A stretch of 64,000 nt of DNA from a virus, in the IMG/VR virus record IMGVR_UViG_3300026290_000001, one strand, 5' to 3'. Under the pieces are notes generated by a model. That model was not told the DNA's origin. It made no database searches and saw nothing but the letters and a program-made list of their open reading frames with translations. Each line of letters starts with the position of its first letter. The stretch's first letter is position 1. A program made the translations under genes and the position numbers. Shown here in pieces: positions 5,593-56,877 of the stretch.

Positions 5593-7347
5593 ATGGATAG
5601 TAAATCGATTATTGACGAATATATAAAGAAAACAGATTGGAGAGTAAATGAAAATTCAAATTCACCTTATAGTTTTGGTGGATTAAATAAACATATAATT
5701 GCTGAAATATCAAAAGATTATTGGCTAAGGAATGTTTATCCCAAAAGAATAACTAATACTTATCTTAATGGGAAAATGCATATTCATGATCTTGGAGGAA
5801 TGACGTTATATTGTTGCGGATATTCTCTTAAAGATATACTAATGATGGGTGTACAAGGAGTACCTAATATTCCTACTTCTGCCCCTGCTAAACATTTTGA
5901 TGCTGTACTTAATCAATTAAGTAATTTAGTTACTGTGTTTCAAAATGAAATTATGGGTGCAGTAGCTTTTAATTCTTTTGATACATTACTTGCACCATTT
6001 GTTAAAAAAGATAATTTAACTTTTAAAGAAGTTAAGCAAAGTATGCAAAATTTTATTTTTAGTATTAACTCTAATTCTAGAGGTGGTGCGGAACCTGCTT
6101 TTTCAAATATTACATTTGATCTCACACCACCAGATGATTTATTAAATGAAAATGCAATTATTGGTGGAGATTTTGTTGGTTTTACATATAAGGATTGTCA
6201 AAAAGAAATAGATATGATAAACAAAGCATTTTATGAATTAATGCTTAAAGGAGATGCTAAGAAACGTCCGTTTGCATACCCAATACCCACATATAATATC
6301 CATTCTCGTTTTGATTGGAATAATCCTAATAATGATTTGTTATGGGAAATGGCAGGTAAATATGGTTATCCATACTTTGCAAATTTTTTAAATAGTGATA
6401 TGAACCCAAGTGATATAAGAAGTATGTGTTGCAGACTTAGTATTAATTTAAAAGAATTATCAAGAAAAAATGGTGGGTTATTTGGTGCAGGAGATTCTAC
6501 TGGCTCTATTGGTGTAGTTACAATAAATCTGCCAAGAATAGCATATTTAAATAGTAGTAATAAAAAGAAGTTCTATAAAGATTTAGAACGCACTTTAAAT
6601 ATTGCCAAAGATAGTCTTGAAATTAAACGAAAATGGTTACAAGAAAATATTGTTGATAAAAATATGATTCCTGCCTTTTGTACATATGTAGGCACTTTAA
6701 AAAATCATTTTAGTACAATTGGTGTAGTTGGTATGAATGAAATGTGTGAAAATTTTTTTGGGAAAGATATTGATATATTAACTTCGCAAGGAAAAGAATT
6801 TGCAATTGAAGTTGGTAATTTTATTCGTAATAAACTTATACAATATCAAGAAGAAACTGGCAACCTTTATAATTTTGAGGCTACCCCTGCCGAGTCTACA
6901 TGTTATAGATTAGCAAAAAAAGATTGTGAAGAATTTGATGATATTATTATTAGAGGAACAAGAGAAGCACCTTATTATACAAATTCTTGTCATATGCCAG
7001 TTAATAAAGTTAAAAATATCCATCAAGTATTTGAACATCAAAATGATTTGCAAATTCTATTTACGGGTGGAACCGTAATTCATATATTTATGAATGGTGC
7101 TATTAGCGGACAACAAGCGAAAAGCATTATTAAAACAGTTTGCGAACAATATAAAGTTCCATATGTAAGTATTTCACCATTAAATAGATATTGTCCTAAT
7201 CATAATTATATCGAAGAAAAAGTTGATTATTGTCCTATATGTAATACGCCAGTTGAAATGTATCAAAGAATTACGGGTTATCTTAGGAGAGTTGAATTTT
7301 TTAATGATGGTAAAAAATCAGAATTCAGAGATAGAGTACAATTATAA
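5593..7347 (+). CDS. nrdD: anaerobic ribonucleoside-triphosphate reductase (class III)
   Basis: C-terminal glycyl-radical motif RITGYLRRV preceded by Cys-rich zinc ribbon CPNHNY...CPICN; size and gene order with nrdG. Confidence 0.8.
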   Translation: MDSKSIIDEYIKKTDWRVNENSNSPYSFGGLNKHIIAEISKDYWLRNVYPKRITNTYLNGKMHIHDLGGMTLYCCGYSLKDILMMGVQGVPNIPTSAPAKHFDAVLNQLSNLVTVFQNEIMGAVAFNSFDTLLAPFVKKDNLTFKEVKQSMQNFIFSINSNSRGGAEPAFSNITFDLTPPDDLLNENAIIGGDFVGFTYKDCQKEIDMINKAFYELMLKGDAKKRPFAYPIPTYNIHSRFDWNNPNNDLLWEMAGKYGYPYFANFLNSDMNPSDIRSMCCRLSINLKELSRKNGGLFGAGDSTGSIGVVTINLPRIAYLNSSNKKKFYKDLERTLNIAKDSLEIKRKWLQENIVDKNMIPAFCTYVGTLKNHFSTIGVVGMNEMCENFFGKDIDILTSQGKEFAIEVGNFIRNKLIQYQEETGNLYNFEATPAESTCYRLAKKDCEEFDDIIIRGTREAPYYTNSCHMPVNKVKNIHQVFEHQNDLQILFTGGTVIHIFMNGAISGQQAKSIIKTVCEQYKVPYVSISPLNRYCPNHNYIEEKVDYCPICNTPVEMYQRITGYLRRVEFFNDGKKSEFRDRVQL

Positions 7348-10788: not shown

Positions 10789-11346
10789 ATGAAAAGAAAG
10801 TTTTTTATTGATTTTGATAATACAATTATAGATACAACCAACGCTTTCTGCGCAGTTTATAATGAGCTTTATTGCGATCATCCTAATTTTAAAACAGCAG
10901 AACCAGATCAAGTTAAGGTTTACAATTTTTCTGACGAATGTCCTTTAGTTACAAATGTAGAAGAAATTTTTACTCATCCATTATTCTTTCAATTTGCAGA
11001 ATTTATAAATCACAATACATATGAAACTCTAGAAAAATTAAACAATAAATATCAACTTATAGTATGTTCAATAGGTTGGCCTAAAAACTTAGCATACAAG
11101 GCACGTTGGTTGGAAGAAAAACTACCTTTTATTAAAGACTATGTTCTAATCAGTAATCCTACATGCAAAATGAATAAGAGCATTGTAAATATGGAAGGTG
11201 CAATATTTTTGGACGATATACCGTCAAACTTATATAGTTCAAATGCTGAAAGAAAGATATTATTTGGTAAGAGATATATTTGGAATAAAGAATGGGATGG
11301 AGAATGGGTAAGAAGTTGGAGTGAAGTTGAAGGAAGGTTTTTGTAG
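10789..11346 (+). CDS. HAD-family 5'(3')-deoxyribonucleotidase-like
   Basis: N-terminal FIDFDNTIIDT (DxDxT HAD motif I). Confidence 0.5.
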   Translation: MKRKFFIDFDNTIIDTTNAFCAVYNELYCDHPNFKTAEPDQVKVYNFSDECPLVTNVEEIFTHPLFFQFAEFINHNTYETLEKLNNKYQLIVCSIGWPKNLAYKARWLEEKLPFIKDYVLISNPTCKMNKSIVNMEGAIFLDDIPSNLYSSNAERKILFGKRYIWNKEWDGEWVRSWSEVEGRFL

Positions 11347-11398
11347 AAGAATTAAAATAGTAATATAAATATATGTTTATATAATAAACATTATTTAA

Positions 11399-22448: not shown

Positions 22449-23741
22449 TCAGTCATGAGATGAATTGGCTCTGTTCTGTTCATATATAATCCATGATTTT
22501 CTTGCATTAATTCTTTGCATGTTAGATATTTTCGGTGTCTTCATACCTCTGGGTGCATTACTAAAATCTATTTTTTCACCATCTATACCCATAAGAATGG
22601 CATAACCCGTAGACATTCTACCTTTAATAAAATATTCATTACCTATATACCTTACTTTATCAAACTTCCTAAATCCTTCTATTTTACCTGTAGGTATCTT
22701 CTGATGACTTCTTACTCCTTTTGCCTGTTGGTAATCGCCTTTAGGGATACACTTTTTTAATACAGCTTTTTCAGTTTTAAAGCTTACATCAATTAACCCT
22801 ATATCTTCAATATTATTTAAACAGGCAATAGCTACAGCATCGTAGTAATGCTCTTTTGGTAATCCCATTAGCTGTCTATGTTCTTTGGTAATAAATCCAA
22901 AGGTTTCTTTTGCATTTGGTAGCTGTCTTAATAATTGTTGTCTTATACTATTCATCTGTGTTGTGTGTTTTAATTGTCCTTTAATTTTACCATTCTTCTT
23001 TAATTTAATTCCTCCTTTGTGCAAACTATTATGACAAGTTTTACAAAGTGTAATTAAATTTTCTGCATCATCTGAGCCACCATTTTTTCTAAAAACTATA
23101 TGATGTACCTCTAATCTGCTGTCTTTACTTTTTCCTTTGCAATACTGGCAAATATATTTATCTCTACTTAATACATAAGCTTTAGTATTAGCAAATCCAT
23201 AATTAGTTCCTTTTTGATAAAGCCATTTATTACTTAATACTGCTGGATTTTTTAAAGCATGTGGGTCAAATGTTGCTGTTTCTATTATTATATTTGTAAT
23301 GGGCATTATTGATTTTGCAAAATCAATTTCTTTTAAGTGTGAATTAATTTTACTTGTCATTGTAGGAGAAAATCTATCTTTTTTAATGCTGTTTTTCCTA
23401 TTATTAAATCTAGGTTCCCTATATCTAGTTTTCCTATTCCTTCTAGTTCTCCTATATTTAGCTCTTTTGTCCATTTTGTCAGATATATCATTTCTAATTT
23501 CTACTTCTGATATATAATACACTTCATTTTCGTCATTTGCTACTGCACTTCCTATTTTACTACTACCAGTATCAATTCCTAAAGTTAAATCTTGTGTATA
23601 GTCTGTAGCATGATATAGTAATTTAATTGTAAATGGAGTTCTTCTTATGCATTTTGCTTTACCATCTTTTAACAATAATCTTGCTATTGCTGGTTTACAA
23701 GGCATTAAAGGACTCCCATCTTCATTAATTACATAAACCAT
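22449..23741 (-). CDS. iscB: IscB-type RNA-guided nuclease (OMEGA system effector; PLMP + split RuvC + HNH)
   Basis: N-terminal PLMP motif (GSPLMPCKPAIARLLLKDGKA), RuvC-I LGIDTGSSKIG, Arg-rich bridge RRTRRNRKTRYREPR, RuvC-II IIIETATFD, HNH CQYCKGK...EVHHIVFRKNGGSDDAENLITLCKTCH, RuvC-III HYYDAVAIA. Confidence 0.75.
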   Translation of the reverse strand: MVYVINEDGSPLMPCKPAIARLLLKDGKAKCIRRTPFTIKLLYHATDYTQDLTLGIDTGSSKIGSAVANDENEVYYISEVEIRNDISDKMDKRAKYRRTRRNRKTRYREPRFNNRKNSIKKDRFSPTMTSKINSHLKEIDFAKSIMPITNIIIETATFDPHALKNPAVLSNKWLYQKGTNYGFANTKAYVLSRDKYICQYCKGKSKDSRLEVHHIVFRKNGGSDDAENLITLCKTCHNSLHKGGIKLKKNGKIKGQLKHTTQMNSIRQQLLRQLPNAKETFGFITKEHRQLMGLPKEHYYDAVAIACLNNIEDIGLIDVSFKTEKAVLKKCIPKGDYQQAKGVRSHQKIPTGKIEGFRKFDKVRYIGNEYFIKGRMSTGYAILMGIDGEKIDFSNAPRGMKTPKISNMQRINARKSWIIYEQNRANSSHD

Positions 23742-24030
23742 AAAATCAAATCCTTTCGGATAAATACTCTGCTTAAAAGCAGGTTATGCGTATCTATATA
23801 CTATTACCATATATAGAATTCGTCCTCATCTCGACAATGATAAAATAGCTTATATGTATATCACACCGAGCCTTACCCTCCAACTCTACTTAGTGATATA
23901 CGATAGAGCAATGGTCTGATGCGTCAACCAAAGGTATCATAACTATTCTATCGTAGTATAAATTTCTCTATACTAAGTCTGGTGAACTTAGACTTTAGAA
24001 GCCTCCGACTTTAGTCGGGGGTAGTTCACT
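23742..24030 (-). ncRNA. candidate omega-RNA scaffold upstream of iscB
   Basis: About 285 nt with no ORF, GC-enriched relative to surroundings, several stem-loops on the - strand (cccccgact-aaa-gtcggagg; ctaagt-tcaccag-acttag; ctgct-ttta-agcag) directly 5' of iscB. Confidence 0.45.
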
Positions 24031-30030: not shown

Positions 30031-33000
30031 CTATTTACCAAGTTTACTCATTCCATTATTTATCCGTTTAAAGAAACCATCAACACCTTTTTCTGTGTTT
30101 TCTACTTTATCTATATGAACATTCATATTATAAGTTACGTTACCTCCACCAGCAAACTGTAATTGTGGAGTTGCATTGGCAATTAATTTTTGCATATTAG
30201 GAATTAGATATCTTTCAATATTTTTTGGTGGAATTAAAATTTCATTTGTTAGTGCTTTGATTATATGTTCATTGGCACTGGTATTGAAAAATTTATTAAA
30301 TTTATCAACAAAACCAAATGATTTATCTCCGACTATACCACCTTCATGATATATCCTAATTTGTCTTTTCTTTTCATCCCATTCTACTTGATGACCTAAT
30401 GCTTCTGCAACTTCCCTGATAGAAAGATATGTTGTTCCGTCAACATTTTTAGCTGGTTTAAATCTCTTTCCACCAATTATAATTGTCTGGTTTTGTCCAT
30501 AACCTTCCCAATCAGCAGATGCTCCTAAAAGTGATGCAAGAAGTCTAGATTGCATAATTGCTCTATTATTGACAAGTTCAAAAGAACCAGAATCCAATAC
30601 TGCCATAGGTTGTCTACCAGATGTGTTAGAACTAGGATTAGTACTTTCCAAAGAGGGAATAGACATATTCGCACTATTTGCACTTTCTAATAATGCTAAT
30701 GCCTGTTCCATTTTTGTAATTAAATTAGCACTAATACTATTACCAATAAACTCTAAATTGCCATTTACAAAAGTTTTAAATTCTGCAAAAGCTGATTTAA
30801 CTTTATCAATATTACCATTTATAATATCAGAACGAATTTGGGCAAACTTTTGTTCGTCATTAATTAAATCGTCATAGTGTTTTTCGGTTTCTCTTTTAAT
30901 TCTATCCAACCTATCTTTTTCTAAGTTAAGTTTAGTATCTTCTGCTTTTTTCTTTGCATCAATATCTTTTTTATAAGCATCTAATTGGTCTTTAAGATTT
31001 TCTTTACGTAAATCAATTGAATGGTCATGTTGATATTCATTAATTTCATCCTCTTGTTCTGCCAATTGTTTTATTAATTCTGCTTTTTTTGCTTTTGCTT
31101 CAAAAGAATCATCTAATGATAAAACGTCAATATTTTTTTGAGTTTCTAATATTGCTTTTTGTTTCTTTTCCAATTCACGATTATAATCATGCTCATTTTC
31201 TTCTCTATCTAGTGCTTTGATTCGTGCATTGATGTAATCTTCAAATTGTTTTAATTCATCATCAAGATTATCAGTTGCTTGTTTATGACGTTTTTCTTCT
31301 GCTTTCATTTGTTCATCTATGGCATCTAATGCAACTTGTTTTTGTTTTTCATAGATATTTTTATAGATAGAGATGATTTCGTCTGCTATGGATGCTAGTT
31401 GTTGTTTGATAGAGAATTGGAGATTGATATATTCTTGCTTTAGTTGTTTTAAAGTATTTATCAATTCTTGTTTTTGGTCAGCATTGTATCTATCACTTGC
31501 TAATTCCTGTTGAACTAATGCTATTTTATTTCTTAAAATATTAACACTTTCAATATTAATTTGATTTTCTCGTTCTAATAATGCAATATATTCAGCAGAC
31601 CCTTTTTCTAATAAAGACATTTCATTTCTAAGGTTTTCTTTTTCTTGAGTTAAATCAGATAGTTTAATATCTTCAATTGATAAATTAATTTTAAATTCAG
31701 CAAAACTCAAATCTCTTATTTCATCATCTATACCTTGAATTTCTTTTTTAAGACCTTCTGCACTATCTTTGAGTTTTTTAAAATCTTCAATCGCTTTTGC
31801 AATTTTTTCATTCTTTATATCAACTTCAATTGTATCTGTTGAACCAGACATTATTTTGTTAAAGTCAGATTCAGACAACCCTTTTCCAATATAAGACCGT
31901 AGATTCTGTTCTGCTTGTTTTAGACTTGAATCAAAAGTGTTATTTATATCTAAAAGCAGGTTTTGTTTTTTTTGTAATAAAAGTATCATTTGGTCATATA
32001 TTTCTGTTTTTTGTTCAAAAGAAGTTACATCGTCAAGTTGATCTTTAAAAGTTTCTATTTCTCTGTTAATTGCTTCGAGTGCTTCTTTCCAAACTTCAAA
32101 GGTTTTGGTAAAGGATTTGGAGGATTTAGAGGAAGAACCATATCTATCTAAAGAACTAGATACATTAAGATTTTTAAACTTAGATGCCATATCTCTAGTG
32201 GCTTTTTGAAATTCAGCATAATCTTTAAGCATCTGGTTTGTTTTAGAATCAACAGCTAAAGCACTACCGCTTTCAATACGTCTAAAATCACCCATACTCG
32301 AAGGATTTACTAATAGCGTACCTGCATTAAAAGCATCAAAATATTTCGCCCATTCAGAACCTAATTTGCTTATTAATTGCAATTCAATTGCTTCTCTTGC
32401 TTGAGCTAAATTTGCCCATTGAGTTACATTATTGCCATATAATTTTGATAAATGATTAAATAATTCAGCATGGTTATTTTTAACACTGTTATAGAAATTA
32501 ATATCTTGTTCTTTAGTTTTTATAAAGGCATCATAAATTGCATTTTGGTAATCTTCTGTGTCTTTGACAAGTTGTTGTCTTAATTTGGACTCATCTTCAA
32601 GTAGAGGAATATAATCTTGATAATCAGATATTATTTTTTCTATTGAAGATTGAGTAAGACCTTTGTCAGATAATTCATCAAGAAAACCTTTTAGGTCTTT
32701 TATTTTAGATACATTGTCTTTGTAAGTGGTTTGAAAATCGGAGAGAGCTTTTTCATATTGATTTAAAGTATTAATCGCATTTTTTGAATCAATAGTAGAA
32801 GGATATAGTGATGCAAAATTAATAGCAAATTCTTTTAAATCGGGATTACCTTTAGTTAATGTATTAATTAAATTAGTTATTTCCTTAGATGTTTTTGATA
32901 ATCCATCTCTATTTTTCTTAGAATCATCGCCACTATTAATAGCAGAAGTTAATTTATTATATTGTTCAATTAAAGAATCTAAATCAGAATTAGCAACTTT

Positions 33001-36000
33001 AGTAGCAAAATCACTTAATGCTTGTTGTTGAGTTTCTATATCTTCGGGTTGTAAAGCAAGTGATTTAGCAAATTCGGAAACAACTAATTTGGCAGAATCA
33101 GACATTTCCTTACCATTAGATTCTAAAGTTTTAATGGTTTCTTGCGCTTCGTATTCTAAATATTTTTGTTTGTTTTTAGAAAGATTATATATTTCTTCTT
33201 GTTGTCTTTGATATATATCTTTCCAATCTTCTAATTTTCTGAGGTTATACCATTCAGTTCCTTTATTATTATCAATCATTAATTGATATTCTTCTATACG
33301 TTTTTCTGCGGTGTCTCTGAGGTTAATTGCTTTTTTAATTTCTTTATTAGTTTGTTTATCTGATGCTTTAACTTTAAATTCTAATAATTCCTGTTCTTTT
33401 TTTAATTCTTCATCTAAAGCCAAAATTCTTAGTTTAATTACTTCTATAGAATCAGAATAAGCTTCTCCTTCAAGATTAATACCAGTAGCAGATACACCAT
33501 ATTTATCAACAAGTTCTTTTTGAATTTCTAATAATCGTTTCTTTTCTTCGGTAGTTGCGGTAAGATTTTTCTCTTTATCTTTAAGAGTTTCATATTCAGA
33601 AGTTAATTCTTTTAACCCCTCTTTTTGTTGTTTTAAATTTTGTATTTGATTTTGACTTGTTTCTATTTGTTTTTGTTGTTCTTCTCTATGTTTTTTAGTA
33701 GCATTAGTGAGTCCATAAATAGCAACCATTGCAGTTGTTGCAACAACTGCCAATAATCCTAATGGATTTGTTGCCATCGTTGCTTTTAAAAAATTCATTG
33801 CAGCAGTAAGTCCTTGTGTTGTTGTCAATAATGCTAAAAGGGAAATATTGGCAGCATTAGTAGTAGTAATGAATGCGATCATTGCTTTTATACTAGAAGT
33901 AATAGCAGTTCCTTTCCAAATTAAAAAAGCCGTAGTTAAAAGTGCTACAACAACTTCTGCATTTCCAAGAACTTCAACTAAAGTTGTCATAGCAATTACA
34001 AAACCTTTAATTACGTCAGAATTTAATGCTTCTTGCCATTTCCCCATTACTGTGTTTTTGAATTGTGCAGATTTTGCCTCAATTGATTCCATATACTTTT
34101 CGTTTTCAATTAAAGCAGAATTTGTCGAATTTAAGGCAGTAGTTAGAGAGTCCTGCATATCCTTGTAATTAGTCATCATAGCCATTACTATGTTTCCTTG
34201 TCTTTTTCCTGCGACAAGTTCCGACATATTAGCCCTCTGTACGTCTGTAAGTTTTTCCCAAACTAAGGCTAATTCTAACATAATGTCATAGGTGGATTTA
34301 AAGGTATTTTCATCTTTGCGAATTTGAATACCAATATTTTTAAATGATTCTTCAAGTTTAGGAAGATATTCTAAAACATCTTCACCATCTTCGGATACAC
34401 CTCTAAGTCTCATTGAAATTGTTTTGAGGGCTGTTCCTACGGTTGCTGGGTCTTGTACCACTGCGTTAGCAGCAGTTATCAATGCAACTGCTTCTTCCAT
34501 TGTATTGCCAGCAGAATATAATGAAGCAGCAGATCTACGCATAGCTTCACCAATACCTGCACTTGAAATTGCAAAATTATTTCCAACTTCATTATAAATA
34601 TCTACAATTTTCTGTATATTTCTACCTTCTTCATCTACTGCAACACCAAAACCTTTTACTGCTGAAATAATTGCTAGACTAGCTTCTTCTACTCCAATAT
34701 CACCTACATTAGAATATAATAATGCTTGTTTTGCTAATTGAGCAGATTGTTCAAGGGAATAACCCAAACGGGCAAACTCTGTCGTACTATTAATAACTTC
34801 CACACTAGTTTTTGCCAAATTTCGACCTATAGCATTTGCCTCAAGTGAAAATTTATTTAATGTTTCTCTAGTTTCGTCAGTAACTTTATTCAAATTTGTG
34901 AGAGCAGTATCTATGTCGATGATACTTTGAATACCATTTTTTACTGCTGTTATTGTTTTGATTATTACATCACCGATGAGCAACCAACTAGCGAATTTCT
35001 TGCCCGCTTCAAGTAAACTTTGTCCAAAAAGTCCAGTATATTTATTAGCATCTTGAATTTCTTTCTTATAAATACTTGTGGTAGTAGAAATTTCTCTAAG
35101 TTTAGAATTGGCTTCTGCCATATTCTTACTGAAATTTTTATTAGTTGGATCAAAACCACGTATTTGAGATTCAAGAGTATTTAAAGCACTTAAATTATCA
35201 CCAACAATAAACTTTCCATCTACACCTCTCATGCCCCTGATTCTATTTAATAAATCTTGTTGAGCAAGAGATTGTTTATGTATTTCACTTGTTAACTTTT
35301 GCTGTTGAATAATATCTTTATCAATATTTTTTGCTTTTATTGTACCAACATTCCGTAATGTTTGTTCTCTAATTTTTTCAAGTTGAATTAATTTTTCAGC
35401 TTCTATTCCTTCTATTTTGGTTTTTTCACCAATGTCAATTTTTCTTCTAATAATATTATTATATTGACCTTGATGATAGGTTATTTGTTTAGTTAATTCT
35501 TTTGCCTGTTCTGTATCTTTATTTCCTAAACTATGATAATCTTGTCTTAATTTATTTAATTGTGTTAAATGCTGTTTGGCTTCATTAAAATTTTTATTTT
35601 GTGTATTTTTAATAGTTTCTAAATTAGTTTTTTCAAGATTATCATAATAATCTGCCATTTTAACCAGTTCATCTGGTTTCTTTGTCATATCACCTACAGT
35701 TTCTTTAACTCTCTGTGACCAATATTTGGACTGTTCTTTATTTAATTTTTCTAACTCTGTACGTTGTTTTTTATAATTAATAGTAGTTTCTGTTACTTTT
35801 TTATATACTTCGTCTGTTCCTGCTTTTAAATGTTCAATTTGTTTTACACTCTCACCATTTGCTTTTGTCCACTCTTTAGTTCTTTCAGTAATTTTTGCTT
35901 CAGCATTTTCAATTTGTACATATTTTTCTTTATACTTGTCTAAACCCTTACTATCAACATCAATTTTTATTTTAGGATTAACTCGTTGTTCAATATCTTT

Positions 36001-36075
36001 TTTTACTTTATTTAGTTCTGATTCTGATGCTCTATCTAATAACGTTTTTATTCGGATTACAATATCATCTGCCAC
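30031..36075 (-). CDS. tail tape measure protein
   Basis: 2014 aa, extensive coiled-coil, central hydrophobic block, position between tail genes and baseplate; C-terminus carries a copper-amine-oxidase-N-terminal-like segment (YLSIREVAEALGHQVEWDEKKRQIRI). Confidence 0.8.
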   Translation of the reverse strand: MADDIVIRIKTLLDRASESELNKVKKDIEQRVNPKIKIDVDSKGLDKYKEKYVQIENAEAKITERTKEWTKANGESVKQIEHLKAGTDEVYKKVTETTINYKKQRTELEKLNKEQSKYWSQRVKETVGDMTKKPDELVKMADYYDNLEKTNLETIKNTQNKNFNEAKQHLTQLNKLRQDYHSLGNKDTEQAKELTKQITYHQGQYNNIIRRKIDIGEKTKIEGIEAEKLIQLEKIREQTLRNVGTIKAKNIDKDIIQQQKLTSEIHKQSLAQQDLLNRIRGMRGVDGKFIVGDNLSALNTLESQIRGFDPTNKNFSKNMAEANSKLREISTTTSIYKKEIQDANKYTGLFGQSLLEAGKKFASWLLIGDVIIKTITAVKNGIQSIIDIDTALTNLNKVTDETRETLNKFSLEANAIGRNLAKTSVEVINSTTEFARLGYSLEQSAQLAKQALLYSNVGDIGVEEASLAIISAVKGFGVAVDEEGRNIQKIVDIYNEVGNNFAISSAGIGEAMRRSAASLYSAGNTMEEAVALITAANAVVQDPATVGTALKTISMRLRGVSEDGEDVLEYLPKLEESFKNIGIQIRKDENTFKSTYDIMLELALVWEKLTDVQRANMSELVAGKRQGNIVMAMMTNYKDMQDSLTTALNSTNSALIENEKYMESIEAKSAQFKNTVMGKWQEALNSDVIKGFVIAMTTLVEVLGNAEVVVALLTTAFLIWKGTAITSSIKAMIAFITTTNAANISLLALLTTTQGLTAAMNFLKATMATNPLGLLAVVATTAMVAIYGLTNATKKHREEQQKQIETSQNQIQNLKQQKEGLKELTSEYETLKDKEKNLTATTEEKKRLLEIQKELVDKYGVSATGINLEGEAYSDSIEVIKLRILALDEELKKEQELLEFKVKASDKQTNKEIKKAINLRDTAEKRIEEYQLMIDNNKGTEWYNLRKLEDWKDIYQRQQEEIYNLSKNKQKYLEYEAQETIKTLESNGKEMSDSAKLVVSEFAKSLALQPEDIETQQQALSDFATKVANSDLDSLIEQYNKLTSAINSGDDSKKNRDGLSKTSKEITNLINTLTKGNPDLKEFAINFASLYPSTIDSKNAINTLNQYEKALSDFQTTYKDNVSKIKDLKGFLDELSDKGLTQSSIEKIISDYQDYIPLLEDESKLRQQLVKDTEDYQNAIYDAFIKTKEQDINFYNSVKNNHAELFNHLSKLYGNNVTQWANLAQAREAIELQLISKLGSEWAKYFDAFNAGTLLVNPSSMGDFRRIESGSALAVDSKTNQMLKDYAEFQKATRDMASKFKNLNVSSSLDRYGSSSKSSKSFTKTFEVWKEALEAINREIETFKDQLDDVTSFEQKTEIYDQMILLLQKKQNLLLDINNTFDSSLKQAEQNLRSYIGKGLSESDFNKIMSGSTDTIEVDIKNEKIAKAIEDFKKLKDSAEGLKKEIQGIDDEIRDLSFAEFKINLSIEDIKLSDLTQEKENLRNEMSLLEKGSAEYIALLERENQINIESVNILRNKIALVQQELASDRYNADQKQELINTLKQLKQEYINLQFSIKQQLASIADEIISIYKNIYEKQKQVALDAIDEQMKAEEKRHKQATDNLDDELKQFEDYINARIKALDREENEHDYNRELEKKQKAILETQKNIDVLSLDDSFEAKAKKAELIKQLAEQEDEINEYQHDHSIDLRKENLKDQLDAYKKDIDAKKKAEDTKLNLEKDRLDRIKRETEKHYDDLINDEQKFAQIRSDIINGNIDKVKSAFAEFKTFVNGNLEFIGNSISANLITKMEQALALLESANSANMSIPSLESTNPSSNTSGRQPMAVLDSGSFELVNNRAIMQSRLLASLLGASADWEGYGQNQTIIIGGKRFKPAKNVDGTTYLSIREVAEALGHQVEWDEKKRQIRIYHEGGIVGDKSFGFVDKFNKFFNTSANEHIIKALTNEILIPPKNIERYLIPNMQKLIANATPQLQFAGGGNVTYNMNVHIDKVENTEKGVDGFFKRINNGMSKLGK

Positions 36076-36507: not shown

Positions 36508-37545
36508 TTACAAATCACTTAAAGATTTATTTTCTACTTGTTTAATCCCATCTTCATCAAAATACTTACCTAATTCCTCATCTATCTCAGTGTCATTATA
36601 TAATGACACCATATTCGTACTCTCCCAGCCAACTACATCTTTAATTACATCTGCTGGAATATTTGCTTGGCAAAGTGCGGTTGTAAAATAATGTCTATTT
36701 GAATGCCAATACCAATCTATACCTAAAATATTAGAAAAAGTTATTGCCCAAGAATTTAATAAAGATATAGTGCCTGGTTTCCATACACTATTTCTTTTAT
36801 TCCAAAATAACTCTTCCCCTTCAATGCCTAATTCTTCACGTTGCTTCATCCATAAATCAAAATAAGGTTTAAATTTAGAAACCAAGATATACCTATAAAT
36901 CATTTTACCCTTAGAACTTCTACCCTTTGTTTTTATCTTTTCAGGAGTTTTATATAAAGCACCGTATTTAATATTTTCTTCTGTAAAATGACTTACTTTA
37001 AACCTTAATAATTCTGCCTTTCTTGATCCACTACTTACTGCCAATGCAACTGCACATGCTTGTTGATATTTGCCTTTTTCAACTAAATAATTAAGCAATT
37101 CGTCAACTTGTTCATCTGCAAGGACAGTTTTATCCCTAACATTTACTTTTACTGGTGCAGGGATTTTATTAACTATATTGCGAAAATTAGGGTGAATGTC
37201 ATCTAGCATTGCCTCTATATAATTAGACATACTACTAATTGCTGACTTCAATCTTCTTACTCTATTAGGACTAAGATTTTGTGTATTCACAAGCCAATTC
37301 TGATATTTTAAAATATCACGTTTAGTAAAATCTATAAAAAATTTATTATCATTATATTGTAAATTCCATACCCAACAAATTTCAATATCATTTTCATAAC
37401 CTTTTATAGTGGCATGAGACATATCTTTCCCTCTGCAATAATCTAAAAATTCATTAAGTAAATCTTTATTTTCTTTTGAAACTCGTTTCCACAATTCAGG
37501 AGTTACAATTGTATGTTGTTCGGTTTTCCTTGCGATTATAATCAC
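36508..37545 (-). CDS. tyrosine recombinase / phage integrase family protein
   Basis: SGSRKAELLRFK (box I Arg), WHSNRHYFTT (H-x-x-R), GWESTNMVSLYND (Tyr). Confidence 0.7.
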   Translation of the reverse strand: MIIIARKTEQHTIVTPELWKRVSKENKDLLNEFLDYCRGKDMSHATIKGYENDIEICWVWNLQYNDNKFFIDFTKRDILKYQNWLVNTQNLSPNRVRRLKSAISSMSNYIEAMLDDIHPNFRNIVNKIPAPVKVNVRDKTVLADEQVDELLNYLVEKGKYQQACAVALAVSSGSRKAELLRFKVSHFTEENIKYGALYKTPEKIKTKGRSSKGKMIYRYILVSKFKPYFDLWMKQREELGIEGEELFWNKRNSVWKPGTISLLNSWAITFSNILGIDWYWHSNRHYFTTALCQANIPADVIKDVVGWESTNMVSLYNDTEIDEELGKYFDEDGIKQVENKSLSDL

Positions 37546-37607
37546 TTCCTTATGTTCTATATAATAAAATAGGGCAAGGGATAGATAAAAACATCTACCA
37601 CTTACCC

Positions 37608-38120: not shown

Positions 38121-38715
38121 TCCACATATCCTTCAACATAGGTAATTTATCCCAATCTAATTTATTTATATCTTTTACTAAACTTTTACTGAGACTTTTT
38201 ATTTGCTTATCTGTGGGGAGTTTTTCAACCACTTTATCTAATTTACTTGCCAATATTCCCTCAATACTATTATTTAACTTTATAATCTGAGTAAGTTCAC
38301 AATCCACCAAATCCAATATAAATTCAACTTCAGTTATTGGTATTTGATTTAAAATCCTTTCTATCCCCACATTCTCACAAAGATAATCATAATCTTCAAT
38401 AAGATTTTCTGAGAACTCGATATTAGTGTAATTCACCAATAATGAAACATCACTGGTTAATTTTTTATAAAAGTAATCTATTTTGCTTAAACCATTAATT
38501 TCATCTAAGACAATACAACTATCTATAATTTTATTTACTATTAAATTTTTTTCTATAATGGATAAATACTGTTTAACTTCAAGCAGATCATCTACGAATT
38601 TACCTGCTTCAATTTGTTCTTTTATTTCTTGAACTAACATATTAAATACCTCCAATATATTTATTTTAATAATATATAAAAATCTCTGTGCGAGGCCACT
38701 CTTTGTCATAGCCAC
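38077..38715 (-). CDS. hypothetical tail protein (possible tail assembly chaperone)
   Basis: Acidic protein, overlapping pair with 37608..38120. Confidence 0.25.
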   Translation of the reverse strand: MAMTKSGLAQRFLYIIKINILEVFNMLVQEIKEQIEAGKFVDDLLEVKQYLSIIEKNLIVNKIIDSCIVLDEINGLSKIDYFYKKLTSDVSLLVNYTNIEFSENLIEDYDYLCENVGIERILNQIPITEVEFILDLVDCELTQIIKLNNSIEGILASKLDKVVEKLPTDKQIKSLSKSLVKDINKLDWDKLPMLKDMWNVANGNQSEGEEIG

Positions 38716-39112
38716 ATTTCAAAGTTAAACTTGTTAAATGTAAAGAATCATCATCAATTATTAATCCTGATTCAGCAATACCGTCTAAAATAAATTTAGG
38801 GACAGTATTGTCACAATCTTTACGGATTTTGGTTTTGAAGTAACTAACAAATGTCATTTCACACTGTTCTATTTTTTTATTTGTAAGTTTGTTTTCTTCT
38901 ACAAACCAGATTATGAAATCTTTCCATTTTTGTTTTAAATCATTCATTTGAGGACGTTTCATTATCATCCATTTATTGATAGATGGATGAGTAGGTTTAT
39001 CAATAGGAATTTTTTTACGTTTTGGATATTTAGCAAAATAATATTTATTGTATTTTTCTAAAACATTATTATCTATAATTAGTTTTATTTCTGAAATAAT
39101 AAATTCCTCCAA
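38666..39112 (-). CDS. hypothetical protein
   Basis: ORF in tail module. Confidence 0.3.
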   Translation of the reverse strand: MEEFIISEIKLIIDNNVLEKYNKYYFAKYPKRKKIPIDKPTHPSINKWMIMKRPQMNDLKQKWKDFIIWFVEENKLTNKKIEQCEMTFVSYFKTKIRKDCDNTVPKFILDGIAESGLIIDDDSLHLTSLTLKCGYDKEWPRTEIFIYY

Positions 39113-39174
39113 ACAAAAAGAGAGATTATTTATAATTTCTAACCCCTCTTTATATATTAATTTATATTGTTGTT

Positions 39175-40137
39175 TTAAAACACCACATAACTCACACCAC
39201 TACCAACAATTGCATCTTCACTACCACCAGCAAACGGTACTGGTTCACTTAAAATATCTAATGGGAAACCTGCTTGATAAGTACCAACCACAAATAATGC
39301 TGCTAATTCAGGGGTATTATTAATTATACTTTCTACATTACCTGGCATTATCTGGTCTGGATCGCCATCAACATTAGTAGGAGAAGTAATTGTTAATAAA
39401 TTATTAGCAAAACCAACAGTCCCTTGTTGACTTATTCCCGTACCAGCAACTAATATCACCGAATAATCATTTCCACTTACACCTGCTGTTTTACAATTAA
39501 TTACCATAGAACCACCTGTTGAACCTGTTACAGTTACACTTGCTGGAATGGCAAGTTGAGTATCAGCAAATCCTATAGTATCACCAATGGAAGATGTTAT
39601 TGTTCTTATATATTCAGTGTTATCTACACTGAATTTTATTGTTTTTGTGTTAAGCGAATCTAATTCAAAATTTTTAGTTGAATCTATTAATGTTGAAGTT
39701 GTTCCTATAGAAGTAGATGTACCATGAAGAAGTGCAGTTTGAATGGGAGTAGTTATGGTTGCGTTTAGATTAGTAGGGATATTGGTTATTAAACTTGCTC
39801 CTACATCAACTACACGACCTGTAATTTTTAATGTTCCTCCACTAACGGCAGATACTCGACATCTTACTCCTGCAAAATGTGCTAAATCTATGACGAAAAC
39901 CTGATTGGCATTACCTGTGACAGATGTAGCAATTGTTAATTCTGGTAATTTAACAGCAGGAATAGGAAACCAATTAGGTGTAGATGAACCATCACAACCT
40001 TCAAAATGTACAGTATAATTAGCCGAACTAATAATATAAACCGCCATTTGATTGTTTCTACCTGTTTTAAAAGTTACTCCATTACCTGTAGTTGTTACAT
40101 TATCTTGGAAAATCCAAGAGTTTGTTTGTACGTTCAT
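39175..40137 (-). CDS. putative major tail/structural protein
   Basis: Preceded by a terminator hairpin and a long CA-rich leader, suggesting high expression; Thr/Ser/Gly-rich. Confidence 0.35.
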   Translation of the reverse strand: MNVQTNSWIFQDNVTTTGNGVTFKTGRNNQMAVYIISSANYTVHFEGCDGSSTPNWFPIPAVKLPELTIATSVTGNANQVFVIDLAHFAGVRCRVSAVSGGTLKITGRVVDVGASLITNIPTNLNATITTPIQTALLHGTSTSIGTTSTLIDSTKNFELDSLNTKTIKFSVDNTEYIRTITSSIGDTIGFADTQLAIPASVTVTGSTGGSMVINCKTAGVSGNDYSVILVAGTGISQQGTVGFANNLLTITSPTNVDGDPDQIMPGNVESIINNTPELAALFVVGTYQAGFPLDILSEPVPFAGGSEDAIVGSGVSYVVF

Positions 40138-40291
40138 TTTATTTGCCTCCTTTTGATTTATGGATTTATGTTGTTTTGAGTGGTTGGTTGATTGATTGGT
40201 TAGTTAGTTGGTTGATTTGATTGGTTGAATGATAGTTGATTTGATTTGATTTGATTGTTATTTGAGTGATAGTTGAAAGGTTAATAAAATA

Positions 40292-40320
40292 GGGTAGATA
40301 CTGTAGGAATGTATCTACCC
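40292..40320 (-). terminator. rho-independent terminator-like hairpin
   Basis: Perfect 10-bp stem gggtagatac / gtatctaccc with 9-nt loop, 7 nt after the stop of 40327..40617, followed by T-rich tract on the - strand. Confidence 0.5.
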
Positions 40321-40326
40321 ATGTGA

Positions 40327-40617
40327 TTATTTTTGTGGAATAATTTTGTCAAATGTTTTCATTGTTTCTTTTATTGTTTCTTTTACCATTTCCTTTTCTT
40401 CTGAAAAATCTACATCAACCCAATCGCAATTTTGGGGAGAAAAAAGCATTTGAATATACCAGATATCCGAGTCTTTAACATGTTCCATATAATTACCATC
40501 TGTAAAATAAAAACCTTTTTTATCTTTACCTATGGTGTAGATTCTATCCATATAAAGACCAGGGGGTGGGGCGGCAGGACAAGTATAAGTTAATTTAACT
40601 TCATTGTATTTCATCAT
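40327..40617 (-). CDS. hypothetical protein
   Basis: ORF with RBS. Confidence 0.3.
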   Translation of the reverse strand: MMKYNEVKLTYTCPAAPPPGLYMDRIYTIGKDKKGFYFTDGNYMEHVKDSDIWYIQMLFSPQNCDWVDVDFSEEKEMVKETIKETMKTFDKIIPQK

Positions 40618-40683
40618 TTCGGAATCACCTCTTTTAAATTATAGGAGATTATGTAAAGACATAACCTCCTATAAAAACTATAA

Positions 40684-41439
40684 TTAAACTTCTACATAAT
40701 GCATCATATCACCAGTTGAATCAGCGAGAATATCCCATTCAATCGATAATCTTGCTACGTTATCTGCGTCCATAGTAAGAGATACATTAGATTTTGGCTT
40801 AACATTTAATAATTGATACTGTACAAATGTATCAACCTGATTTGTTCCACGAACAGCACTATCAGCATAAATAGTATAACCACCAGGGAAACTTACATTA
40901 TCAACGGTAAATGTATTATGAGTTCCTTCTAACATATAATAACATACTACTTTTCCTGCGGTTGAAAATGTAGTCGGATTAAAAGTTAAGGCTTTATCTG
41001 TTATAGAATACTTATCTTCAGCACTTGCTGGAGTTCCTGCTGTTTGTTCAGCGTCATGGGTAATACCATCACTATTTAATTTAAAAATAACTAGACTACC
41101 AGCTTTGGGAAGTTCAGTTAATGATGCACCTCCACCACCGGCTTGAACATTTAAAACTTCACGTTTTGCTACAGGCATAGTTTTATTAGACATAGTTGTT
41201 CCGAAGAGCAAAGATAACCATTTAAGTTCAAAAACTTCCATCTCTGTCTTAAATGTACCCTCTCTCTGTTTATCCCATCTAATAGCTTTTGTAGTCTTAT
41301 TGTAAGCATAAACGGAATCAGCAGTAAAATCTATTGAACTTGTTTTGGCGTAATCAGCATAAAGAACTGGTTTTAATCCACCACCAGCAACTTGTTCATA
41401 TACATGAAGATTGGCCGCATCTTTAATACCATATAGCAT
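40684..41439 (-). CDS. putative tail tube / major tail protein
   Basis: Size and position; followed by an imperfect hairpin. Confidence 0.3.
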   Translation of the reverse strand: MLYGIKDAANLHVYEQVAGGGLKPVLYADYAKTSSIDFTADSVYAYNKTTKAIRWDKQREGTFKTEMEVFELKWLSLLFGTTMSNKTMPVAKREVLNVQAGGGGASLTELPKAGSLVIFKLNSDGITHDAEQTAGTPASAEDKYSITDKALTFNPTTFSTAGKVVCYYMLEGTHNTFTVDNVSFPGGYTIYADSAVRGTNQVDTFVQYQLLNVKPKSNVSLTMDADNVARLSIEWDILADSTGDMMHYVEV

Positions 41440-47729: not shown

Positions 47730-48710
47730 TTAAATTTTTAGTTCATTTTTTAAAATTTCCTCAATATTATCAAATTCCCAATAGGGAATACGAAGCAAAA
47801 TTATATTATGCTTTTTACAATATTCATTTTTTAGTTCATCATGAATTTGTAAAGTTTCAAACTCCTTCTTGGTCATCATACCTTTAACCCATTCATAATG
47901 TTGTTTCCCGTCATATTCAATCAACATTCTTAATTGGGTTTTTTCTTTGTCCCAAAATACAGGAACATCAAATTTAAGTAAACCTCCTCCAACGCCCTTT
48001 AAATCATCAAAAGTATATTGGGTGTGATGTGGAATATCATATTTTGTAAGTAAAATATCTAATTGTTTCTCTCCTTTAGATTCTGCACACTGGGAACAAC
48101 CTCTATTATTGCAACTTCTACTGAATATTTTTGCTTTCCATTCATACCCACATTCTAAACATTTCCACCAAGCGTACTTATTACAACCATAAGTTATATC
48201 ATAGGGAGTTAAATCGCCATTTTTGGTAGGATGCCACTCTAAGGTTAGGTCTGGTCTTTTAGTAGCGAGACAGTTTGATAATGTTACTTGCGCCCCTACG
48301 CAAACACCACATCCATTACCACTATAAATACCACTCCAATCAGCTAGAAAAATTTCTCCACAATCTTCTTTTAAACATCTCCATTGCATTTTAGTTTTTG
48401 CATTGCTATAATTTGTACTTATTAACTCAAAAGGTTTATTATTTAATACACACCAATTTTTCATATTTTGAATTGTGTATGGATTAGAAACATCAAATTT
48501 CATTGGATTGCTTCTTAAAAATACCGATATACTTTGAAAATAATAATAACTATCCATATCTTTAAATGTTAATTTTGAAAGCGCATTCTTATATTTCAAA
48601 TCAATCAAAATATAACCTTTTGCTAATAAAGTTTCCTTCACTAACTCATAAGTCCATTTAGTACCACTTGTATAACCCATAAATTCCTCCTCATCCTTGT
48701 TTACAAACAA
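47730..48710 (-). CDS. homing-endonuclease-like protein (zinc ribbon + PD-(D/E)xK/Vsr-like nuclease domain)
   Basis: Cys-rich region with EWHPTKNGDLTP zinc-ribbon motif, C-terminal ...LIEYDGKQHYEW...LLRIPYWE nuclease-like motif; intrusive position between capsid-assembly genes. Confidence 0.45.
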   Translation of the reverse strand: MFVNKDEEEFMGYTSGTKWTYELVKETLLAKGYILIDLKYKNALSKLTFKDMDSYYYFQSISVFLRSNPMKFDVSNPYTIQNMKNWCVLNNKPFELISTNYSNAKTKMQWRCLKEDCGEIFLADWSGIYSGNGCGVCVGAQVTLSNCLATKRPDLTLEWHPTKNGDLTPYDITYGCNKYAWWKCLECGYEWKAKIFSRSCNNRGCSQCAESKGEKQLDILLTKYDIPHHTQYTFDDLKGVGGGLLKFDVPVFWDKEKTQLRMLIEYDGKQHYEWVKGMMTKKEFETLQIHDELKNEYCKKHNIILLRIPYWEFDNIEEILKNELKI

Positions 48711-56571: not shown

Positions 56572-56599
56572 AAGACCTCCTTTAATTCAAAGGTTAATT

Positions 56600-56675
56600 T
56601 GGAGCCGAGTATAGGATTTGAACCCATAATCTGTTGTTTACAAGACAACTGCCTTATCAATTTGGCTAACCCGGC
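56600..56675 (-). tRNA. tRNA-Thr (anticodon UGU), CCA encoded
   Basis: 76-nt cloverleaf folded by hand: 7-bp acceptor stem, T-arm with TTCAAAT loop, anticodon stem GTTGT/ACAAC with loop CTTGTAA. Confidence 0.7.
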
Positions 56676-56877
56676 AAATTAGAAAGTTGGTATCTGCCTA
56701 ACTTAATAGGTCAAATCCCACTTTCTTTGTTATTAATATTAATTCAGTCGGCGTAAAGCCTTTATAATAAAATTCAAACTTTAGTAGATTGGCACTCGCT
56801 ATATCTCTTCAAAGAGCATAATTTTAATAGTTTGATAGCTGTCCATTCTACCCTCAAAGTTTAAATTTATTAATATA

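Follow-up and report, generated by a model that had tools for sequence, protein, structure and literature searches.

The stretch of DNA analyzed in this study (hereafter the window) comprises 64,000 nucleotides of IMG/VR virus record IMGVR_UViG_3300026290_000001 and contains, directly upstream of a gene of the XepA/YomS family, an intergenic region whose coding strand is free of G over 150 nt. The sequence derives from IMG/VR contig 3300009671_000358, and digester samples containing the phage include JGI 3300009671, 3300009607 and 3300009588. Complete versions of the same genome measure about 135.3 kb. All genes in this part of the window are located on the - strand, in the order tail tube gene, small open reading frame (ORF), XepA-like gene, Holliday junction (HJ) resolvase gene, two ORFs (the second of which is YomN-like), integrase-like gene and tape measure gene. 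This order is identical to yomU...yomS...yomN-yomM of phage SPbeta, and the XepA-like gene thus stands in a tail module of the SPbeta type. Between the end of the small ORF, which encodes 96 aa, and the XepA-like start codon lie 189 nt, which comprise an RNA hairpin, the G-free tract and an extended Shine-Dalgarno (SD) sequence (Table 1).

Anatomy of the G-free leader

A first-pass annotation, made from the nucleotide sequence alone, had placed a 10-bp hairpin at the beginning of this region, and its coordinates match ours exactly. The stem contains 5 G-C pairs and encloses a 9-nt loop; the hairpin folds at -15.5 kcal/mol (z = -4.9 versus shuffles), and its sequence is unique within the 64-kb window. 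The same annotation had described a repetitive leader running into the ribosome binding site (RBS) of the downstream gene. This holds as well: the 150-nt G-free run extends up to AAAGGAGG, and the repeats are real but imperfect. Tandem Repeats Finder reported overlapping imperfect periods of 4, 5, 12 and 29 at 70-84% match, and the units comprise four AATCA (40236-40256), CAACC/ACTAAC (40182-40227) and, near the SD sequence, two ATAAATC (40155-40169).

The G-free run, 141 nt of which lie beyond the hairpin stem, is the longest run without any one base in the window (mononucleotide shuffles: mean 56, maximum 83). On the coding strand the tract contains 0% G and about 28% C, compared with 12.1% G and about 10% C in the other intergenic spacers of the array, and from this spacer background composition a P of about 4e-9 per site was calculated for a 150-nt G-free run. 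The tract is real and far beyond chance. For its 130-nt core a folding energy of 0.0 kcal/mol was predicted, which is among the top 2 of 5,110 windows compared, and this core shows the largest C-minus-G excess on either strand of the whole stretch; for the tract taken as 154 nt, the predicted energy is -1.07 kcal/mol. Neither AUG, GUG and UUG codons nor SD-like motifs occur within it, and TAA is present in all three frames. Furthermore, no sigma-70-like promoter was detected on the coding strand from the hairpin to the ATG, and the leader is thus most likely internal to a longer transcript.

Directly after the hairpin, UAUUUUAUUAACCUUU (40276-40291) is complementary to the SD-to-start segment GGAGGCAAAUAAAAUG (40135-40150) at 14 of 16 positions, G.U included. 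Such pairing would close the G-free tract into a loop, with a predicted probability of about 0.33 in the window and of at most 0.06 in relatives. A conserved long-range helix that sequesters the SD sequence was consequently rejected, as it is predicted in the window only and relatives lack the pairing. The second-longest single-base-free run (11247-11388), the only comparable one, consists of 142 nt that lack C on the + strand and are rich in C and T on the - strand; it overlaps ORF 10789..11346 of the + strand at the 3' end of that ORF. As it is the antisense of a + strand coding region, it was rejected as a sister element of the tract.

Table 1. Coordinates of the intergenic module and of the genes and spacers around it (positions in the window).
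Feature	Positions	Strand	Remarks
RNA hairpin	40292..40320	-	GGGTAGATAC (40311-40320), loop ATTCCTACA (40302-40310), GTATCTACCC (40292-40301)
U-rich tail TATTTTATT after the hairpin	40283..40291	-	longest U run 4
Full G-free run, 150 nt (A 72, C 42, T 36)	40151..40300	-	from inside the 3' hairpin arm to the base before GGAGG of the SD sequence
Conserved leader block AACCTTTCAACTATCACTCAA	40262..40282	-	first part of the G-free tract
CA-rich, G-free low-complexity core	40154..40261	-	length varies among relatives
Extended SD sequence AAAGGAGG	40146..40153	-	perfect; 8 nt before the ATG at 40137; AATAAATCA-type repeats precede
XepA/YomS-family gene, 320 aa	39175..40137	-	ATG at 40137
96-aa ORF, phrog_32178	40327..40617	-	ends in TAA; hairpin starts six bases on
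Spacer after tube gene, with 16-bp hairpin TATAGGAGGTTATGTC..CATAATCTCCTATA	40618..40683	-	folds at -20.3 kcal/mol
Major tail (tube) protein gene, 251 aa, YomU_Tube family	40684..41439	-	phrog_2729 virion structural protein
Spacer after XepA-like gene, hairpin plus U-run	39113..39174	-	
2014-aa ORF	30031..36075		downstream; read as tape measure protein on size and position
YonO-type single-polypeptide RNA polymerase homolog, 934 aa	58543..61347	-	phrog_8308, E = 8e-166

Conservation among related loci

For comparison, about 20 related loci (denoted by L numbers) were obtained from IMG/VR, JGI, ENA and Logan assemblies. The stem GGGTAGAYA..TRTCTACCC stands upstream of every XepA-like gene that has its native upstream region, whatever gene precedes, and hairpin, G-poor spacer and strong SD sequence co-occur with the XepA-like gene behind the tube gene, the 96-aa ORF or DUF7487. 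The earlier assignment of the leader to the downstream gene is thereby borne out. Relatives that lack the XepA-like gene are also without this hairpin module. In L005, the tube protein of which is 94% identical, the hairpin and a G-free tract of about 100 nt are kept and the XepA-like gene is lost.

Within the spacer, the leader block AACCTTTCAACTATCACTCAA could be aligned and is largely kept in L142, L018, L013, L148, L157 and L005. Close to the SD sequence, ..AAACCAATAAATCAAAGGAGG.. is conserved and ..AATAAATCAAAGGAGG.. is kept in at least eight relatives, among them L011, L013, L016, L018, L142, L148, L149 and L157, while the middle of the spacer is not conserved. The intergenic length ranges from 29 to 218 nt among relatives (223 nt in L011/L012) with many indels, and the pattern is mosaic: the first half of the window leader is matched by L142, the second by L013. 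The 12-mer TTTTATTCAAAT occurs in the spacer upstream of XepA/yomS-like genes or a remnant thereof in L005 (~7251-7262), L011 (~2880) and L019 (~1425), and also in SPbeta itself (L158, 4405-4425, - strand).

What persists through this divergence is the base composition. Seven leaders could be aligned, and their 67 variable columns comprise C/T (29), A/T (15), A/C (14), A/C/T (8) and A/G (1) differences. Apart from one G shared by four of these leaders, no G was gained, and C accounts for 18-28% compared with a background of about 10%. Four further leaders that cannot be aligned (L016, L021, L147, L149) likewise carry G-free runs of 50-100 nt beside the SD sequence. Since A is the commonest leader base and C/T differences are frequent, yet A/G differences are nearly absent, the comparison speaks for purifying selection that keeps G off the RNA-sense strand, although low-complexity sequence cannot be aligned with certainty and a rapid turnover of repeats might produce part of the same signal. 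The composition thus looks selected, with G excluded despite heavy divergence.

The suggestion that the repeat number might be phase-variable fared less well. The 189-nt spacer and the flanking 3.3 kb are identical in five assemblies from different samples, which represent one clone in this assembly-level comparison. In addition, no promoter elements flank the repeats on the coding strand, and the tract is non-coding and holds at most four perfect AATCA units.

In L014, L019 and L145 a homing endonuclease gene is located between hairpin and XepA-like gene and replaces the long leader. XepA-like genes that lie 29 nt behind such a translated homing endonuclease ORF are without the leader and have a weaker SD sequence (AAAGGA). 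More generally, the position behind the tube/96-aa pair is a hot spot, with homing endonucleases, an amidase, an NlpC-like gene or differing HJ resolvases found there in different relatives. The slot after the XepA-like gene (38666-39112, - strand) holds non-orthologous HJ resolvases across relatives, of the RusA-like (window, L008/L009, L013), RuvC (L005 by eye, L016, L019, L157), RecU (L014) or DUF1064 (L018) type. Homing-endonuclease-like genes (DUF4379 treble-clef zinc finger, HNH) are also inserted between structural genes, an example in the window being 47730-48710 (- strand).

The hairpin is kept in all XepA-linked lineages, with energies of -10 to -19.5 kcal/mol. Across seven distinct hairpin versions 98.4% of the stem positions pair; besides two compensatory double changes, which both belong to the L018/L157 lineage, there are three G.U-only changes and one A.C mismatch. 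The shuffle control for covariation was not significant (79/500); since six of the nine stem pairs never vary, covariation alone is no proof of RNA structure. The G.U-type changes do favour an RNA helix over a symmetric DNA site. The U-tail, on the other hand, is not conserved: in L005, L013, L148 and L157 the stem is kept and C-rich TACCC repeats are found in its place. These TACCC units just 3' of the hairpin copy the end of the 3' arm (CTACCC-TACCC...) and look like slippage copies. The Rfam 15 covariance models gave no match at E <= 1 between 39800 and 40800. Scanning IMG/VR with the hairpin motif alone delivered more than 120 loci, and because almost all of them belong to unrelated phages the motif has no diagnostic value on its own. 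A site for MazF/EndoA (UACAU) in the window hairpin was considered and dropped, as it is not kept in L005 or L018.

The phage and its late gene array

Several lines of sequence evidence, namely the tube gene, the ORF read as tape measure, the YonO homolog, the XepA/YomS family and the gene order, group the phage with SPbeta-like phages. An identical protein of the 251-aa tube gene carries the precomputed family PF27173 YomU_Tube. In tblastn searches the tube gene matches Bacillus phage features annotated as 'major tail protein' or 'tail tube protein', as well as Clostridium phage c-st at 41% identity. The 96-aa ORF is kept beside the tube gene in relatives (syntenic in L005-L010) and in phage c-st (CST156). 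Since Clostridium botulinum phage c-st is the closest cultured relative of the tube gene, and given the GC content of 28.8% and the strong SD sequences, a low-GC, Clostridia-type host is suggested.

In the 320-aa protein encoded behind the leader, a YomS-like beta-sandwich occupies about residues 5-110 at the N-terminus, while the C-terminal part, some 200 aa in length, is uncharacterised. The ORF found no match in the local Pfam or PHROG libraries; its homologs carry the precomputed family PF27453 XepA. Compared with PDB, the family profile A2 matched, via the N-terminal domain, 6i56 (XepA residues 176-278, E = 5e-7) and 6i5o (YomS, E = 3e-6). The AlphaFold2 monomer model reached a predicted local distance difference test (pLDDT) score of 73-83 only for residues ~30-110, with an overall mean of 51. 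Against GenBank phages nothing was found, neither by tblastn with the 320-aa protein nor by blastn with the 4.5-kb region. XepA and YomS are pentameric beta-sandwich discs of uncertain function (PMC6834076). Thus the product is a member of the XepA/YomS family, and its earlier description as a probable abundant tail protein is not supported; judging from its family assignment, the abundant tail protein of the locus is the upstream 251-aa tube protein. A 320-aa ORF of L010, which lies behind CA-rich tracts, was considered as a homolog of the window protein, but the relationship was not supported (BLASTP E = 0.51).

The YonO homolog carries a D-x-D-x-D motif at residue 559. Its best cultured match by tblastn is Bacillus phage BUCT082 (55% identity), and c-st, Enterocloster and SPbeta-group phages were found as well. 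YonO of SPbeta reads the entire late cluster as a single operon, beginning at one start site and pausing little (PMC5467207), and the late gene array of the window is likely transcribed by the YonO-type polymerase. An independent regulation of the XepA-like gene, as initially envisaged, finds no support in a leader that lacks a sigma-70-like promoter, in a phage that encodes a YonO-type enzyme and resembles SPbeta with its one-operon late transcription.

The hairpin had furthermore been interpreted as a terminator of the upstream gene. Besides the replacement of its U-tail in four lineages that keep the stem, the distribution of such structures speaks against this view: hairpins are present at nearly every junction of this gene array, with similarly strong ones, many of them with U-rich tails, after the tube, capsid-like, XepA-like and tape measure genes and one before the integrase-like gene. 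A scan for the terminator consensus did not call the site of hairpin plus tail. Because hairpins are found at almost every junction, they cannot all terminate efficiently. The presence of the YonO homolog, and the fact that SPbeta YonO reads the late cluster as one operon, make it more likely that they form segment boundaries in one long RNA, as attenuators or end protectors, than that they are full terminators.

The integrase-like (tyrosine-recombinase) gene (36508-37545, - strand) lies between the YomN-like and the tape measure genes, as yomM does in SPbeta. The hairpin before it (37546-37607) has the core GGTAGAT..ATCTATCC followed by CCCTATTTTATTA and resembles the XepA-linked hairpin; L019 carries the same hairpin at the same junction. 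Two more elements of the window should be mentioned. A full-length HEARO RNA (Rfam RF02033, 121.7 bits) at 23819-24029 (- strand) is located directly 5' of a 430-aa ORF (22449..23741, - strand) in the phage tail-gene region, and this layout is that of an IscB/HNH OMEGA-type element. A tRNA-Thr (anticodon TGT) at 56600-56675 (- strand) lies in a structured intergenic region of 306 nt (56572-56877) upstream of the head genes.

Possible roles of the leader and known counterparts

From the observed anatomy, the statistical extremity, the co-occurrence with the gene and the exclusion of G across diverged lineages, we infer each functional step of the following mechanism. The feature would be the 5' boundary module of the XepA/YomS-family gene within a long late (structural) transcription unit, built from a conserved RNA hairpin, an unstructured spacer of A, C and U only and an extended SD sequence preceded by AATAAATCA repeats. 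The hairpin may close off the upstream tube/96-aa RNA segment as a 3'-end protector or partial attenuator, without acting as a full stop. Because 189 nt separate the end of the upstream ORF from the start codon that follows, ribosome coupling would be blocked and ribosomes would have to load afresh at the XepA-like gene. For this purpose the G-less spacer could offer about 140 nt of RNA that always stays single-stranded and serves as a platform for standby or enhancement that feeds the strong SD sequence, with a mode of action as in CA-rich unstructured 5' tails and in the G-less CAA-rich omega leader of tobacco mosaic virus (TMV). The spacer itself would evolve fast by slippage of short units (AATCA, CAAC) and by recombination, the absence of RNA-sense G being its sole persistent constraint. 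We thus tentatively interpret the tract as a structure-free, start-codon-free ribosome-loading leader of the XepA-like gene, a reading that we consider the best single explanation, although it falls somewhat short of being probable.

As in standby sites, the region directly upstream of the RBS is predicted to be single-stranded, with 0.0 to -1.07 kcal/mol for the tract, which ends at the SD sequence. In E. coli, unstructured and especially CA-rich 5' tails stimulate translation via ribosome standby (PMC5934652), and the first-pass proposal of a CA-rich unstructured leader that acts on translation therefore invokes a legitimate known mechanism. That the XepA-like genes which follow a homing endonuclease ORF after 29 nt lack the leader and have a weaker SD sequence agrees with a leader required for fresh ribosome loading only. 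However, several points weigh against ribosome loading. Thermodynamic models gave no indication that the native tract makes the SD/AUG region more accessible: a mean unpaired probability of 0.37-0.56 was obtained with it, versus 0.51 with random spacers that had the base composition of intergenic DNA and 0.62-0.68 when the tract was shuffled, and in relatives the modelled SD accessibility equals that of shuffled controls. The leader is also dispensable in some relatives, in which the spacer is reduced to 29 nt within the range of 29-218 nt. In addition, an unstructured leader is possible without C-richness, as that of L016 is A/U-rich with only 7% C; the high C content in the window is thus left without a specific explanation by the ribosome-loading model. 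Finally, the effects of CA-rich enhancers and standby sites were measured in E. coli with ribosomal protein S1 implicated, while ribosomes of low-GC Gram-positives depend less on S1.

Instead of ribosomes, the C-rich, G-free RNA could recruit host Rho in the manner of a Rho utilization (rut) site and end a fraction of the transcripts before or within the XepA-like gene. Such an attenuator would reduce the expression of the downstream tail genes, which are low-copy, in comparison with the tube gene, or tie their transcription to efficient translation initiation at the XepA-like SD sequence. According to the RUT rule (PMC6407284), a window of 78 nt holds more C than G, with six C residues at intervals of 11-13 nt. 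The tract is an extreme case under this rule: 26 C and no G are present in 78 nt, and 41 windows qualify. Only two other - strand regions of the whole stretch do so, neither of them inside the late gene array; the tract moreover comprises 26 YC dinucleotides in 150 nt and is both unstructured and ribosome-free. Between hairpin and gene, a stretch in which C exceeds G (C 18-26, G 0-4 in 78 nt) is found in 11 of 14 orthologous loci, and attenuation right behind the abundant tube gene would be plausible. The strict rule, however, applies to only six of the 14 and fails in eight, including L018 of the same leader clade, and L016 has no C-richness at all. Within 150 nt downstream neither a match to the pause consensus G-11 G-10 Y-1 G+1 nor a qualifying hairpin (loop 4-8 nt) was detected, the lone hairpin at 40103-40119 having a 3-nt loop and lying inside the translated ORF. 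Furthermore, the probable YonO-type transcriber would be fast with little pausing (PMC5467207), whereas the efficiency of Rho drops as the elongation rate rises (PMC6407284), and a strong rut site ahead of essential tail genes would presumably be costly. Rho-dependent attenuation appears unlikely to us, though well worth consideration. Another scenario combines hairpin and Rho-friendly tract into a polymerase-selective insulator: host RNA polymerase straying into the late block, for example in a lysogen, would be halted by the junction hairpins, and Rho on the C-rich tract would remove the read-through, while the fast, pause-insensitive YonO-type polymerase would pass. As a consequence, the XepA-like gene, the PBSX homolog of which is cytotoxic, and the distal tail genes would be expressed only with the phage polymerase. 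We regard this idea as a long shot. The invariant stem GGGTAGA..TCTACCC might also be a sequence-specific signal for the YonO-type enzyme or a partner protein.

Three further explanations concern the fate of the RNA, the history of the sequence or the DNA itself. The hairpin may be a 3' protector of the tube/96-aa message or a 5' stem-loop of the downstream message, and the G-less spacer together with a ribosome-bound SD sequence may form a decay-resistant 5' region, which would result in different half-lives along one late transcript. Strong hairpins at nearly every junction of the array fit such a segmental stability control in one operon, the SPbeta record annotates stem-loops within the late cluster, and it is the stem rather than the U-tail that is conserved. 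Stabilisers made of a 5' stem-loop and a strong RBS are known from Bacillus, namely the aprE leader and the cryIIIA STAB-SD. In low-GC Gram-positives, RNase Y cuts preferentially after G in AU-rich unstructured RNA, with 58% of the sites following G and 2% following C (PMC4608709; bioRxiv 10.1101/2023.03.12.532304), so that exclusion of G and enrichment of C would reduce the risk of cleavage. However, G at -1 is dispensable for RNase Y (bioRxiv 10.1101/2023.03.12.532304) and the protection would be partial; unstructured A-rich RNA is still a good endonuclease substrate, and the need for 100-150 nt is not explained. A role in processing or stability is in our opinion rather improbable. About equally doubtful, and perhaps slightly more so, is the assumption of a largely neutral low-complexity linker at a module boundary, i.e., a slippage-prone filler that is free of G through G-free seed units (AATCA, AATAAATCA). 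The length range of 29-218 nt, the many repeat-unit indels, the TACCC duplications of the 3' arm end, the mosaic match of the window leader to L142 and L013, the recombination hot spot with varied cargo after the tube/96-aa pair and the persistence of the tract in L005 after loss of the XepA-like gene all fit this assumption. It does not account for a single A/G column next to 29 C/T columns among 67 while A is the commonest base, for C at two to three times the intergenic background in an AT-rich genome, or for the independent, unalignable leaders with G-free runs of 50-100 nt. Transcription-associated deamination on the coding strand would moreover add G and not remove it. An element acting at the DNA level is very improbable. 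Palindrome and repeats could bind a protein (as operator, recombinase core site or iterons), or the GT-rich template could form a two-tetrad G-quadruplex. Six of nine stem pairs are indeed invariant across lineages with unalignable flanks, the 10-9-10 inverted-repeat geometry resembles a tyrosine-recombinase core site, a conserved integrase-like gene with a similar hairpin core before it is 2.7 kb away, and GG doublets are repeated on the + strand (GGTTGGTTGATTGATTGG...). Yet three lineages keep the stem only via G.U pairs, by which the RNA helix is kept and the DNA symmetry broken; the two similar hairpins have unrelated spacers and hence no compatible crossover sites; the deletion in L005 does not end at the hairpin; relatives have not kept the GG/CC doublets; and the strand-specific bias points to RNA. 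The hairpins at 40292-40320 and ~37580-37600 were also considered as recombinase sites flanking an invertible segment and rejected because of the unrelated spacers and the RNA-rule changes.

Compared with known systems, the hairpin shares with intrinsic terminators a stable GC-containing stem-loop right after highly expressed structural genes, followed in this phage by a U-rich stretch. It differs from them by its 9-nt loop, by a longest U run of 4, by the loss of the U-tail in four lineages and by the occurrence of hairpins at nearly every junction. Intercistronic hairpins are also found in operons of phage polymerases, such as T-phi and the RNase III sites of T7. The yomT-yomS junction of SPbeta (NC_001884) shows the same gene order (tube ... 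yomS-like ... yomN, yomM) and a hairpin ending the upstream gene. Its spacer, in contrast, measures 62 nt and is without a CA-rich G-free tract, and SPbeta YomS is a single-domain protein of 118 aa versus 320 aa here. With rut sites such as lambda tR1 (RhoTermPredict motif, PMC6407284), the tract has in common at least 80 nt of RNA that is neither translated nor structured, is rich in C and poor in G and has C residues at regular intervals. Unlike rut terminators, it lacks a downstream pause site, its signature is partly conserved, and it is probably read by a YonO-type rather than by the host polymerase.

For the ribosome-loading interpretation, the closest counterparts are the CA-rich 5' tails or standby sites of MS2 coat and tisB (Sterk et al., 2018, PMC5934652), which likewise consist of single-stranded, CA-rich, non-coding RNA directly before the RBS and whose stimulation is length-dependent (PMC5934652). 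CA-repeat translational enhancers were described by Martin-Farmer and Janssen (1999), as cited in PMC5934652. Known standby tails are short (tens of nt), stem from E. coli and typically rescue a structured RBS with the help of S1, whereas the tract described here is about 140 nt long, fully G-free and placed inside a polycistronic late phage transcript of a low-GC host, and modelling revealed no conserved SD-sequestering structure. The TMV omega leader, with 68 nt, no G after the cap-proximal base and a poly-CAA core, enhances translation and is reportedly active in E. coli. Both are viral, G-less, CAA/CA-rich and unstructured leaders before a gene; the resemblance is one of composition only, with no sequence relationship, and TMV differs as a eukaryotic plus-strand RNA virus whose leader is at the cap-proximal 5' end and has neither a Shine-Dalgarno sequence nor an upstream hairpin.

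What distinguishes the module is the complete exclusion of G under rapid sequence turnover in the late operon of a YonO-encoding phage. If the ribosome-loading interpretation is true, it would represent a natural bacteriophage counterpart of G-less CA-rich leaders such as TMV omega and engineered standby tails, and a clean evolutionary signature in which sequence and length are free to change while one base is forbidden. It might then be of use when expression is designed for low-GC Gram-positive hosts, as a ready spacer without structure or as a part that loads ribosomes, and as a test case for the tuning of single genes within the 40-kb late operon of SPbeta-like phages or for the way in which a YonO-type RNA polymerase handles hairpins and Rho. 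The practical importance is modest and the underlying principles are already known. Taken as a whole, the module is a modest variant of known leader types, either an unstructured G-poor CA-rich leader or a rut-like tract, rather than a new system.

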